NCBI GenBank assembly: GCA_964016885.1
Contig: OZ024758.1
Location: 30,752,001 to 30,816,000 of the forward strand
Direction of reading: 5' to 3'
DNA length: 64,000 nt
Source of the DNA: Eledone cirrhosa
Lineage: Eukaryota
Below the pieces are notes generated by a model. The model ran no database searches, was not told the DNA's origin, and saw only the letters and a list, made by a program, of their open reading frames with translations. Positions 2,520 to 57,607 of the stretch are shown here, in pieces. Positions within the stretch are counted from its first letter, which is position 1. Every line of letters starts with the position of its first letter. A program made the position numbers and the translations under genes.

Positions 2520-2730
2520 AACGAAGGAAATGTGGTAAGGAACCAGGTGGACCATAACGCACCAAAGTACTCAATACTTAGGGTAGTAGAGTGGGTAATA
2601 GGAACAAGTAGGACCCCGACGGCTGAGCTCAAGCCGTTTCGACGGCTAATTCTGGACTAAACATTTTTTTAGTCCAGAATTAGCCGTCGAAACGGCTTGA
2701 GCTCAGCCGTCGGGGTCCTACTCGTTCCTA
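2520..2730. mobile_element. Family C asymmetric inverted-repeat element
   Basis: Arms 2599-2661/2668-2730 plus ~78-nt one-sided extension; contains HHR 3' half GAAA-cggct..agccg-TC. Confidence 0.85.
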
Positions 2731-3786
2731 TATATGTATATATATATAAAGTATGTATATATATATATATATATATATATGTATATGTATGTATATATAT
2801 ATATATATATATATGTATATGTATGTATATATATATATATATATGTATATATATATATGTATATATATATATATATATGTATATGTATGTATGTATAAGT
2901 ATATATATATATGTATATGTATATATATATATGTATATATATATATATATATATATATATATGTATATATATATAAGTATATATATATAAGTATATATAT
3001 ATATATATATATGTATGTATATATATATAAGTATATATATATAAGTATATATATATATATATATATGTATATATATATATATATAAGTATATATATATAA
3101 GTATATATATATATATGTATATGTATGTATATATATATATGTATATATATATAAGTATATATATATATAAGTATATATATATATGTATATGTATATATAT
3201 ATATATGTATATATATATATGTATATATATATATATATATGTATATATATATGTATATATATATATATGTATATATATGTATATATATATATGTATATAT
3301 ATATATGTATATATATATATATATATGTATATATATATATGTATATGTATATATATATATGTATATGTATATATATATATATGTATATATATATATACAT
3401 GTGTATATATATATATATGTATATATATATATATATGTATATATGTATATATATATATATATATGTGTATATATATATATATGTGTATATATATATATAT
3501 ATATATATATATATATATATGTATATACTTGTATATATAGATATATATATATGTATATACTTGTATATATATATGTATATATATATATATATATATATGT
3601 ATATACTTGTATATATAGATATATATATATGTATATACTTGTATATATATATGTATATATATATATATATATATATATACTTGTATATATATATGTATAT
3701 ATATATATATATATATACTTGTAAATATATATGTATATATATATATATATATATATATATATATATATATATATGTATATATATGT
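2731..3786. repeat. (TA)n microsatellite with TG interruptions
   Basis: Direct reading. Confidence 0.95.
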
Positions 3787-4207
3787 AACTTTGAATAACT
3801 TTGAAATGTTTTGGCCAGTATTGGCCCAGGCCATGTCTAACTTAATAGCACCACCTGGCGAAGTCTTTCAATTCAGGATTTGGGCACCATGGCCCATTCG
3901 AGAAGAGAATTACTGTTTGCGGAGACATATCCGGGTGTGGGTGGTTTGTCCGGGATTACTTGGAGGAATTTGTCCAAAGACTTCTTGAATTTTGTGTGGT
4001 CAGTTTCTGTTTTGACGTGTCCTGGTGTGATGTTGAAGAGAGCAGGGCCGATTGAGGTGAAATAATTGTGCCGTATTGTTGTTATGAGTTGCGATTTAGA
4101 TTTTTGAATGGGACGGATAGCACGGGGCCCAAGCCTTGGGTGTATCTTGAAGGCGATGCCAACATCATTTGGGCAGTGATGATGGAACATTTTCCACATC
4201 ATGCAGA
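3787..4207 (-). mobile_element. 5'-truncated CR1/L2-group LINE 3' end (ORF2 C-terminus)
   Basis: ORF 3873-4202: [34 protein letters not shown], typical of non-LTR ORF2 C-termini. Confidence 0.75.
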
Positions 4208-6592
4208 TATGTATATATATATATATATATATATATATATATATATATATATATATATATATGTATATATATGTATATATATATATATATATATATATAT
4301 ATATATATATATATATATATATATATGTATATATATATATATATATATATATATATATATATGTATATATATGTATATATATATATATATATATGTATAT
4401 ATATGTATATATATATATATATATATGTATATATATGTATATATATGTATATATATATATATATATATGTATATATATGTATATATATATATATATATAT
4501 GTATATATATGTATATATATGTATATATATATATATATGTATATATATGTATGTATATATATGTATATATATGTATGTATATATATGTATATATATGTAT
4601 ATATATATATATATATATATATGTATATATATGTATATATATATATATATATATATATATGTATATATATATATATGTATATATATGTATATGTATATAT
4701 ATGTATATATATATATATATGTATATATATATATATATGTATATATATATATATATGTATATATATATATGTATATATATGTATATATATATATATATAT
4801 ATGTATATATATGTATATATATATATATATATATATATGTATATATATGTATATATATATATATATATATATATGTATATATAATGTATATATATGTATA
4901 TATATATATATATATATGTATATATATGTATATATATATATATATATATGTATATATGTAAATATATATATATTTATATATATGTATATATGTATATATA
5001 TATATATATATATATATATGTATATATGTATATATATATATATATATATATATATGTATATATATGTATATATATATATATATATGTATATATATGTATA
5101 TATATATATATATATGTATATATATGTATATATATGTATATATATATATATATATATATATATGTATATATATGTATATATATATATATATATATATTTA
5201 TATATATATATATATATGTATATATATGTATATATATATATATATATATATGTATATATATGTATATATATATATATATATATATATGTATATATATATA
5301 TATGTATATATATATATATGTATATATATGTATATATGTATATATATATATATATGTATATATATATGTATATATATATATATGTATATATATATATATG
5401 TATATATATGTCATATATGTATATATATATATATATGTATATATATATATATATATATGTATATATATGTATATATATATATATGTATATATATATATAT
5501 ATATATATGTATATATATGTATATATATATATATATATATATGTATATATATGTATATATATATATATATATATATATATATATATATATATATGTATAT
5601 ATATGTATATATATATATATATATGTATATATATATATATATATATATATATGTATATGTATATATATATATATATATATATGTATATATATGTATATAT
5701 ATATATATATATATATGTATATATATGTATATATATATATATATGTATATGTATATATATATATATATATATATGTATATATATGTATATATATATATAT
5801 ATATATATGTATATATATGTATATATATATATGTATATATATATATATGTATATATATGTATATATATATATGTATATATATGTATATATATATATATGT
5901 ATATATATATGTATATATATGTATATATATGTATATATATATATGTATATATATATACATATATATACATATATATGTATATATATGTATATATATATGT
6001 ATATATATGTATATATATGTATATATATGTATATATATATATGTATATATATATACATATATATACATATATATGTATATATATGTATATATATATATAT
6101 ATATATGTATATATATGTATATATATATATATATATGTATATATATGTATATATATGTATATATATATATATATGTATATATATGTATATATATATATAT
6201 GTATATATATGTATATATATATATATATATATATATGTATATATATGTATATATATATATATGTATATATATGTATATATATATATGTATATATATATAT
6301 ATATATATATATATATGTATATATATATATATATATGTATATATACGTATATATATATATATGTATATATATGTATATGTATATATATATATATATGTAT
6401 ATATACGTATATATATATATATGTATATATATATGTATATGTATGTATATATATGTATATATATATATATATATGTGTATATATATATATATATATGTAT
6501 ATATACGTATATATATATATATGTATATATATATATATGTATATATATATGTATATGTATATATATATATATATGTATATATATATATATAT
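4208..6592. repeat. 2.4-kb (TA)n/(TATG) microsatellite
   Basis: Direct reading. Confidence 0.97.
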
Positions 6593-7283
6593 AAACAATT
6601 AAGTTAAAAATGTACATCTACATATGCATACTGAAATACTAGTGTGCATATGAATACACACACGTATACATATGTAGATGTAACAAGTCTTTCACTGGTT
6701 ACTTTACTGTGAGTAACCCAGCTATTCTGTATGTAAACACACAGACAAACCGGTTTTTAGAGTCATACTGGTTTTCGAGGAAACACCTTTCCTCTATTCT
6801 CCAGAAAGCCAGACAAGGAATATTGAACTAGTTTCGTTATTGTTACAACTCATCAGCAATATTTACCTATCTACCGGCCTTTCTGGAGAATCGTAAAAGC
6901 ACATATCGTTATATGCCTTTTCTATGAAAATTAGTAGTGGCAGACTAATTTGCATAGAGTGTGAGTACGCACCGGTTCAGCGGAGACGATAAAAACAAAT
7001 AACGAAACGAAATTAAATTTCGCTTCGTTTATAACTCACTTTTGTATGACTGACGCTTAAACAATTAAGTTAAAAATGTACATCTACATATGCATACTGA
7101 AATACTAGTGTGCATATGAATACACACACGTATACATATGTAGATGTAACAAGTCTTTCACTGGTTACTTTACTGTGAGTAACCCAGCTATTCTGTATGT
7201 AAACACACAGACAAACCGGTTTTTAGAGTCATACTGGTTTAGAGTCATAATTGTTTAAGCGTCAGTCATACAAAAGTGAGTTA
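6592..7283 (-). mobile_element. Terminally redundant HHR element, 466-nt period
   Basis: Direct repeat 6592-6775 / 7058-7240; short inversion 7249-7283; HHR inside. Confidence 0.8.
6819..6863 (-). ncRNA. Minimal hammerhead ribozyme
   Basis: aatattg-CTGATGA-gttgt aaca ataac-GAAA-ctag-TT-caatatt; perfect 7-bp stem I. Confidence 0.9.
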
Positions 7284-56257: not shown

Positions 56258-56323
56258 TGTTTTATTATATATATTTCGAAGGTACTGTGCTGTTTTTTCA
56301 GTACATCCTCGTCAGATAAAATA
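56258..56323 (-). ncRNA. Hammerhead ribozyme (family B-related)
   Basis: tattttat-CTGACGA-g..gtactg/cagtac..c-GAAA-tatata-TA-ataaaaca. Confidence 0.75.
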
Positions 56324-56467
56324 CATGAATTGATGTATGACATACCTCAACGGTCTTGAAAGTTCAATTCCAGTATTGGCAGAAAAGATATCTTAACGGT
56401 TCAAGTTTTCCTTGAACCGTTAAGATATCTTTTCTTGTTTATATCAAAATTTATAAAACAAACTTTG

Positions 56468-56528
56468 TATTTTATCTGATGAAAGCGTACCAAAGTTTTG
56501 GTAACCTTGAAATATATATAACAGAATA
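56468..56528 (+). ncRNA. Hammerhead ribozyme (family B)
   Basis: CTGATGA at 56476, GAAA-tatata-TA at 56509. Confidence 0.7.
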
Positions 56529-56710
56529 AATTTGTTTTTATAAATATAGTTTATTTAATATCATTGAATATTATACTCCAGAAAACTTGTCGAGTGCTCT
56601 GAATCAGTTATAAACATTTATATTTGTAGAATTACCAACAAATTGAATATCCCTTTTGCTTATATATATATATATATATATATATATATATATATATATA
56701 TATATATATA

Positions 56711-57607
56711 TAGGAACAAGTAAGACCCCGACGGCTGAGCTCAAGCCGTTTCGACGGCTAATTCTGGACTGAATAAAAATTTATTCTGGTATTTAAATAG
56801 CCGAGCTTGTCAAGGGGCAATTCCATATATGGTCAAAGAGATAAACACCAGGATTGGTCACATCACAAGTTAGTAGTAAATCCGTGATGGCAAAATGGTG
56901 GGGGAAGGGGTAGCTGAACCTGCCGGTAGGAGAAAAAGGGAGAGGGGGTGGAGTAGACCCATTCAAGCGTTGGTAGTGCCGGCTACAGCTGGGTGTGAGG
57001 TCAAAGAGGATACTGGGGAGGGGGAGGGGGAGGAAGTCGAAACGGTAAGTAAGAACTATGAAAAGTACTGAGAGAGAGAAAAGAAAAAATAAGCAAGGTC
57101 TGGTTACTAAGACTTAAGTCTCTCGCTATTGCTAGGCTAAAGAAATACATAAATAAATAAATAAACAAATAAGTGAATAAAAGAATGGATAAATAAAAAA
57201 AATAAAAATAAATAAAAAAAAATAAAAATCCTCTTTGACCTCACACCCAGCTGTAGCCGGCACTACCAACGCTTGAATGGGTCTACTCCACCCCCTCTCC
57301 CTTTTTCTCCTACCGGCAGGTTCAGCTACCCCTTCCGCCACCATTTTGCCATCACAGATTTACTACTAACTTGTGATGTGACCAATCCTGGTGTTTATCT
57401 CTTTGACCATATATGGAATTGCCCCTTGACAAGCTCGGCTATTTAAATACCAGAATAAATTTTTATTCAGTCCAGAATTAGCCGTCGAAACGGCTTGAGC
57501 TCAGCCGTCGGGGTCTTACTTGTTCCTATTACCCACTCTACTACCCTAAGTATTGAGTACTTTGGTGCGTTATGGTCCACTTGGTTCCTTACCACATTTC
57601 CTTCGTT
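56711..57607. mobile_element. Family C, longest copy
   Basis: Arms 56711-57012 / 57228-57528 plus extension to 57607. Confidence 0.9.
57421..57514 (+). ncRNA. Hammerhead ribozyme with U3-A8 core (inverted copy at 56725-56818)
   Basis: gcccc-TTGACAA-g..cggcta/tagccg.c-GAAA-cggct..agccg-TC-ggggt. Confidence 0.75.

Follow-up and report, generated by a model that had tools for sequence, protein, structure and literature searches.

Two fixed ends and a one-sided tail in fold-back units of Eledone cirrhosa that very likely derive from Penelope-like elements

Penelope-like elements (PLEs) that encode an endonuclease (EN+) leave insertions with a published layout, consisting of a pseudo-long terminal repeat (pLTR), an adjoining inverted 5'-truncated copy and a one-sided tail of 30-40 nt (PMC3846280, PMC8557442). 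In vitro, the Poseidon element PAc of Anolis cuts and extends both strands of an AT-rich target, and its tail corresponds to the interval between two internal start sites for reverse transcriptase (RT) (PMC11167929). The PAc protein is a predicted dimer, and a stem-loop lies near the point of initiation; the start site is alike on both strands and has no homology to the cut DNA, and the inverted joint is left unexplained (PMC11167929). Here we describe fold-back units in a 64,000-base, eukaryotic-looking stretch of Eledone cirrhosa DNA (contig OZ024758.1, positions 30,752,001 to 30,816,000, forward strand; hereafter the window). Their layout is already known for PLEs, and both-strand extension with two start sites has been in print since Frangieh 2024 (PMC11167929). 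What we add here is the long tails, the ends that overlap TA, the near-obligate pairing of one short with one long end, and a lineage-restricted stem-loop in the tail.

Five copies of one family, which we call family C, lie in the window (2521-2728, 12559-12755, 29134-29304, 48994-49206 and 56713-57606). As the original prediction held, all five share the same two ends by sequence: a short end at GTTCC, followed by TA, and opposite it a long end at CTTCGT, also followed by TA. A fixed one-sided extension had likewise been foreseen, at about 78 nt; the extension stands, and its length is 80 nt in every copy. Arms and loops measure, respectively, 64 and 6 nt in the first copy and 61 and 1 nt in the second (both on the minus strand), 45 and 7 nt in the third and 60 and 19 nt in the fourth (both on the plus strand, the 19-nt loop containing locally templated pieces), and 302 and 216 nt in the fifth. 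The inversion joint was expected to vary. Arm length does range from 45 to 302 nt, but three of the five joints fall inside a span of about 10 nt, so the fold-back point is not freely variable.

The longest copy displays all parts of the unit. Its short-end arm (56713-57011, minus strand), which ends in GTTCC before TA, is followed by the 216-nt loop (57012-57227, minus), by the long-end arm, a pLTR in sense orientation (57228-57526, plus), and by the 80-nt tail that runs to CTTCGT before TA (57527-57606, plus). A predicted bulged stem-loop opens this tail (57535-57558, plus), with a lower stem of ACUC and GAGU, a UU bulge and an upper stem of 3-4 bp. Indirect evidence from read coverage makes the loop most likely a further 5' continuation of the short-end arm.

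Raw reads extend these observations beyond the window. Four of 19 listed runs were mapped to 57012-57612, among them a restriction site-associated DNA (RAD) run from another sample and study under the same species label, which contributed 24,450 mapped reads. The largest loose end listed for the RAD run, with 3,880 reads, leads straight from the short end into (AT)n (depth 13,507 at 57520), and the same loose end recurs in contigs (X1, 125; X2, 114; X4, 10). Depth in the RAD run stays high up to the long end. The fixed ends are therefore a property of the family and not an assembly artefact. Neither of the two outcomes that would have refuted the original prediction was observed: family C termini are non-random in the reads, and the units, whose ends differ by the tail, lack the symmetric terminal inverted repeats of Tc1/mariner miniature inverted-repeat transposable elements (MITEs). 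Coverage drops more than 10-fold 5' of 57465-57480 in all four runs; either most copies are short, as four of the five in the window are, or subfamilies diverge at this point. Within the loop, 57012-57053 has arm-like depth in all four runs, and one X4 loose end carries on as in the window.

The same layout recurs across the window. Self-BLAST after masking of 194 TA tracts (12,241 bases) gave many local palindromes, and an arm ending in microsatellite joined to a second arm with a one-sided extension was present in 22 of 26 spans examined; it was absent at 25254, 17584, 12885 and 32673. All ten further units that had been named as instances of this design have an inverted arm running into (TA)n and a one-sided extension, and two of them, at 37596 and 55253, belong to one family (D). 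Like EN+ PLE insertions, the units have a head-to-head truncated copy, a one-sided tail and palindromic joints, and they share the (TA)n preference published for Naiads; their flanks are microsatellite. They differ from those insertions in that tails run from 57 to more than 100 nt in well-defined families (against the published 30-40 nt), in that most units comprise the pLTR only, and in their density, with more than 20 units of many families in 64 kb.

Hammerhead motifs tie these units to PLEs. A descriptor scan of the window gave 23 hammerhead-like matches. Of 20 arms examined, 10 carry a CUGANGA core on the strand that points outward and none carries one on the other strand; counting any sense core, the figure is 12 of 20. 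The scan found no core in the units at 29841, 31504, 36592, 59615, 25707 and 28029. In family C, a predicted type I hammerhead (57426-57509, plus) has a U3:A8 core, a 54-nt stem II region and a 6-bp stem III with a palindromic loop; its predicted cut falls after 57509, 17 nt ahead of the short end. The minimum free energy fold of this segment does not adopt the ribozyme fold, and no hammerhead was among the 150 Rfam matches listed of 445, where microsatellite and hairpin microRNA look-alikes scored below the gathering threshold. Both the U3-A8 variant and the palindromic stem III loop are known from PLE pLTRs, in which paired hammerheads lie on opposite strands at a spacing of 100-700 bp (PMC4209133). 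The units described here share the CUGANGA or U3-A8 core, the palindromic helix III and the opposite-strand pairing; the long stem II region and 6-bp stem III of the family C motif set it apart (PMC4209133).

A decayed PLE-type reading frame at 50201-51630 (minus) retains RT, thumb, Cys linker and GIY-YIG regions. In a Pfam search of 23 open reading frames (ORFs), the only notable matches were a zinc-finger ORF and, in this frame, GIY-YIG (E 7e-4, below the curated cutoff). The thumb region matches proteins with RT and GIY-YIG domains at identities that reach 58% (51% for an Octopus protein). A Cys linker motif ahead of GIY-YIG is a mark of the Neptune/Nematis clades; a CxxC motif is present in the frame, with a fuller version in P0002. 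The outward-pointing hammerhead cores indicate that the units are most likely 5'-truncated pLTR insertions of PLEs. With the decayed frame and the published layout (PMC3846280, PMC8557442), they sustain the proposed link to Penelope, and we regard a PLE origin as very likely. The units also resemble non-LTR retrozymes, which are short, hammerhead-bearing, non-autonomous PLE derivatives (PMC7229834; bioRxiv 10.64898/2026.07.22.740005). Unlike those tandem arrays, most units here are inverted pairs, and more than one unit is present only at 45691, 7284 and 8246-8810.

Although families were mutually unmatched by BLAST, their tails open with a common shape: a lower stem of RYUC and GARY, a 3' bulge of 1-2 nt that starts with U, and an upper stem of 3-6 bp whose sequence is unrelated between families. 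The descriptor RYUC...U[U/A]GARY matched 22 times in the window, compared with 2.0 (maximum 6) in 100 shuffles, and 17 matches were in tail-bearing units. Within the first 50 nt 3' of the short end, 11 of 18 families matched (10 strictly), whereas at most one match arose in 500 shuffles and none on the antisense strand or upstream. These counts should be read with the knowledge that the descriptor was written after 17 of the 18 tails had been viewed and that the 18th (8246) was added because it matched. The only unplanned matches that fit are 8246, 13 nt past the short-end site, and 12109, 102 nt from a TA tract. Family E gave no match in the copy tested and matches in two other copies. Tails could not be aligned across families with MAFFT, and the stem covariation, which was read from descriptor matches, is partly there by construction. 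The stem-loop likely marks where the enzyme of the element binds.

The literature searched held no description of a conserved stem-loop in PLE tails; subscription papers were outside that search, and an earlier description may exist. A relaxed pattern gave no match after the CUGANGA hammerheads of 25 PLE loci (18 with at least 150 nt searchable), and no relative was found in the viral contigs searched. On the sequences compared, the stem-loop is lineage-restricted and not general to PLEs. Compared with PAc, the units here have in common an AT-rich target, two sites that bound the tail and a stem-loop; PAc initiates in an AC-rich loop, whereas here the ends overlap TA, occur as a short/long pair and place the stem-loop inside the tail (PMC11167929). 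By eye, the PAc RNA in the text of figure S1 has a UUC...UUGAA stem around the AC-rich loop (PMC11167929), which we mention as a lead only. Two observations concern the comparison loci. A 49%-identical full-length PLE (L001:57-82 and 3756-3781) has direct pLTRs and minimal hammerheads and is without the tail stem-loop, and many loci from bacterial bins (L081-L099) resemble contamination by PLEs of a host.

The two arms of a unit are closely matched. Arms of one copy were closer to each other than arms of different copies in all four families tested: 1.4 versus 3.55 differences per 42 nt in family C, 2 versus 7-8 per 159 nt in family D, 0 versus 3 per 90 nt in the family at 60042, and 4 versus 9-12 per 108 nt in family E. 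Private variants are common to both arms of a copy even when the arms measure 45-60 nt. Arm lengths are coupled as well, with loops of at most 25 nt in 11 of 22 units compared with a mean of 3.6 under random pairing of reaches (P=0.00015), a figure that may be inflated because units were collected through their inverted arms. Arm identity and coupled lengths together point to a single template, to fold-back or to later conversion.

Ends and joints add further detail. Of 19 ends, 12 overlap TA in phase by at least 2 nt, where 24% would be expected (p=4e-4). Judged from other copies, the short-end arm reaches farther 5' in the units at 55253, 60042, 59615, 35637 and 45691 and probably 56711. Among 13 listed opposite-strand joints in reads, six have one arm that starts within the tail. 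Two joints coincide with hammerhead features: the one at 45691 uses a 7-nt microhomology formed by stem I, and at 7795 an arm begins at the predicted cut site. A hammerhead-bearing family with a 472-nt unit (7284-8047 and 44376-45098) has one arm that begins exactly at the predicted self-cleavage site and another that reads through an intact hammerhead to 42 nt beyond one unit; its template may have been multimeric or circular.

We favor a model, to which we assign a probability of about 0.5, in which an AT-rich repeat is cut on both strands by a PLE RT/endonuclease that twin-primes a pair of cDNAs on a single RNA, with one start at either end of the tail. The model starts from four observations, namely two fixed 3' ends per family, the likeness of arms within a copy, the TA overlap and the stem-loop 3' of the short end. 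It borrows from in vitro work on another clade, in which both strands were cut and extended by a PLE protein and RT began at two internal sites that mark the limits of the tail. The protein, as a predicted dimer, would sit on the tail stem-loop, and each nicked strand would pair over 2-5 nt with a UA-rich spot and prime at the short or the long site. The lengths of the two cDNAs would be coupled if both ran to a shared 5' end, left by breakage or ribozyme cleavage, or if they stalled within the hammerhead structure. The cDNA 3' ends would then be joined head-to-head, either by end-joining or through microhomology and in some cases by way of an RNA stem, and gaps would be filled. Priming of the two strands at two RNA positions, the core of the original prediction, is plausible given the Poseidon work; a difference in start site between the strands was not seen there (PMC11167929).

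Several points weigh against twin priming on one RNA. None of its steps was directly observed, and we infer the joining of the arms; the literature searched yielded no relevant paper on the joining step, nor one on inverted PLE units made by twin priming. As strands did not differ in vitro and start sites had no homology to the cut DNA, neither strict short/long pairing nor TA overlap is predicted by that system (PMC11167929). The overlap is just 0-1 nt at 7 of 19 ends. Arm identity can alternatively come from conversion between arms. The tail arm is the one that reaches farther 5' at 2207, 7284 and probably 37596; the split of 6 versus 3 lacks significance, and either outcome could arise if a palindrome later lost sequence on one side. 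Two units have equal ends: 36021-36383 is short/short, with arms alike at 46 of 52 positions, and 56126-56660 is long/long, with arms alike at 109 of 163. The arms of each come from different subfamilies and reflect either two templates or two adjacent insertions. A symmetric palindrome (41407-41552), a perfect 49-nt inverted pair, has (TA)n in its center and at both flanks. Seven of the 18 tested tails lack the stem-loop, and a scan of 99 PLE loci of foreign origin gave 4 sense matches against 5.2 expected, with none after a hammerhead. Finally, no empty site was seen, the decayed ORF at 50201-51630 has no BLAST match to any fold-back family, and no active parent has been linked to them.

Alternatively, a PLE could prime a single cDNA at the long end that snaps back to copy itself, with the second strand resolved at the short site by a nick or by TA microhomology. 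We consider this unlikely, although it would directly account for arm identity, for the small loops and for obligate short/long pairing. It has precedents in the literature, since Craig 2021 put the tail down to 'EN-mediated resolution' (PMC8557442) and Arkhipova 2013 read junction palindromes as self-priming (PMC3846280). Single-cDNA fold-back is harder to reconcile with the six units, one of them probable, in which only the short-end arm carries additional 5' sequence, because fold-back from the tail would need a later deletion in each, or with the six listed opposite-strand joints in which an arm starts within the tail; moreover, both tail boundaries are RT start sites in vitro (PMC11167929).

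A looser form of twin priming would employ two independent ribonucleoproteins and two RNAs, one for each strand, with the arms homogenized later. The unlike arms of the equal-end units at 36021 and 56126 are what two templates would produce. We nevertheless find this account improbable: it leaves short/long pairing unforced and does not fit coupled arm lengths or the private variants shared even by arms of 45-60 nt. In its loosest form, that of two independently truncated cDNAs from unrelated RNAs, the idea of separate cDNAs contained in the original prediction fits poorly with those shared variants and with the excess of short loops (11 of 22 units versus 3.6). Self-priming on an antisense template, proposed for the same layout in rotifer PLEs (PMC3846280), could give the head-to-head arrangement; more improbable still, it alone leaves the two fixed, TA-overlapping sense-strand ends and the sense-strand stem-loop unexplained. 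TA flanks and inverted repeats would also be explained by an assembly artefact or by Tc1/mariner MITEs, non-autonomous DNA transposons that use TA target sites. Either is very improbable given asymmetric ends, arms of variable length that meet at the center, hammerhead polarity, and the short end and opposite-strand joints in independent raw reads, and for family C both are ruled out by the asymmetric ends and independent reads.

The individual units vary in how much of the design they preserve. Arms of about 340 nt, a 4-nt loop, a tail of about 66 nt, a CUGAGGA core and a tail stem-loop make up the unit at 14767-15510 (minus), and the unit at 20189-20460 (plus) has arms of 105 nt, a tail of about 67 nt, a CUGAUGA core and a tail stem-loop. 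At 55603-56032 (plus), 171-nt arms accompany a CUGAUGA core and a tail stem-loop of GUUC and GAAC. Less complete are 29845-30400 (plus; arms 225 nt, loop 23 nt), where a TA run breaks the tail and no strict core or stem-loop match was found; 31504-31970 (plus; arms about 177 nt), which has a stem-loop with one mismatch, a blurred long end and no core found; and 36592-36858 (plus; arms 105 nt, tail 57 nt), in which neither core nor stem-loop was found. In two units the loop belongs to the short-end arm. At 59615-59977 (minus; arms 120 nt) the 54-nt loop matches 36248-36383 and the long end runs into (CA)n, and at 60044-60397 (plus), which has a canonical hammerhead and a tail of about 100 nt, the loop matches the copy at 36899. 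The joint of the retrozyme-like short unit at 45691-46015 (plus) is the stem I microhomology described above.

Family D includes a 2.2-kb palindrome (37596-39888, minus) with arms of about 1,090 nt, a 41-nt loop, a hammerhead in both arms and a tail stem-loop. In its unit at 55253-55528 (minus), the short-end arm continues 5' for 130 nt past the point where the tail arm stops, and the unit at 2207-2474 (minus), with a long tail arm and a second arm of at most 19 nt, breaks at the same 5' place. In family E, the unit at 35637-35915 (minus) consists of a tail-only arm joined to a long short-end arm, the latter passing into (CA)n, and the older fold-back unit at 62663-63428 (minus) is split by a later short-end copy (62968-63190) inserted at an internal TA spot. 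Such 5' breaks recur within families, in E at 23755-23790, 56381-56435 and 63231-63301 and in D at 2207-2474 and 55253-55528, which suggests a preferred RNA 5' end or a stall site.

The window also contains other repeats. A 190-nt dispersed family, resembling short interspersed nuclear elements, lies outside the fold-back set and has 7 copies plus fragments (8836-9027, 13549-14126, 21672-21862, 42253-42440, 48264-48451 and 58457-58640). Other dispersed families with (TA)n borders occur at 9053-9676 and 42687-43273 and at 11667-11741 and 26765-26839. Tandem repeats of about 105 nt (1305-2076) encode C2H2 zinc-finger-like repeats on the minus strand (Pfam E 1e-14). A 194-aa frame at 46459-47043 (plus), without a Pfam match, resembles the C-terminal part of an RTE-like RT of the long interspersed nuclear element type.

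The origin of the inverted pLTR and tail of PLEs is still called open in Craig 2021 (PMC8557442) and Frangieh 2024 (PMC11167929). In a genome so rich in families and copies, the models become separable by counting end pairs, loop ownership and arm identity in polymorphic insertions, and the tail stem-loop offers a concrete target for mutation in an existing in vitro assay. If the stem-loop is merely an ancestral leftover of the families of one host lineage, the finding is one of routine repeat annotation. A bolder possibility, which we hold tentatively and consider somewhat doubtful, is that the stem-loop is an RNA element, conserved within a PLE clade, that binds protein and seats an RT-endonuclease dimer asymmetrically on one RNA. 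One target strand would prime 5' of the stem-loop and the second 60-110 nt downstream of where it starts, and every insertion would be an obligate short/long twin-primed palindrome. If true, this would account for the long-unexplained tail and inverted pLTRs of PLEs.

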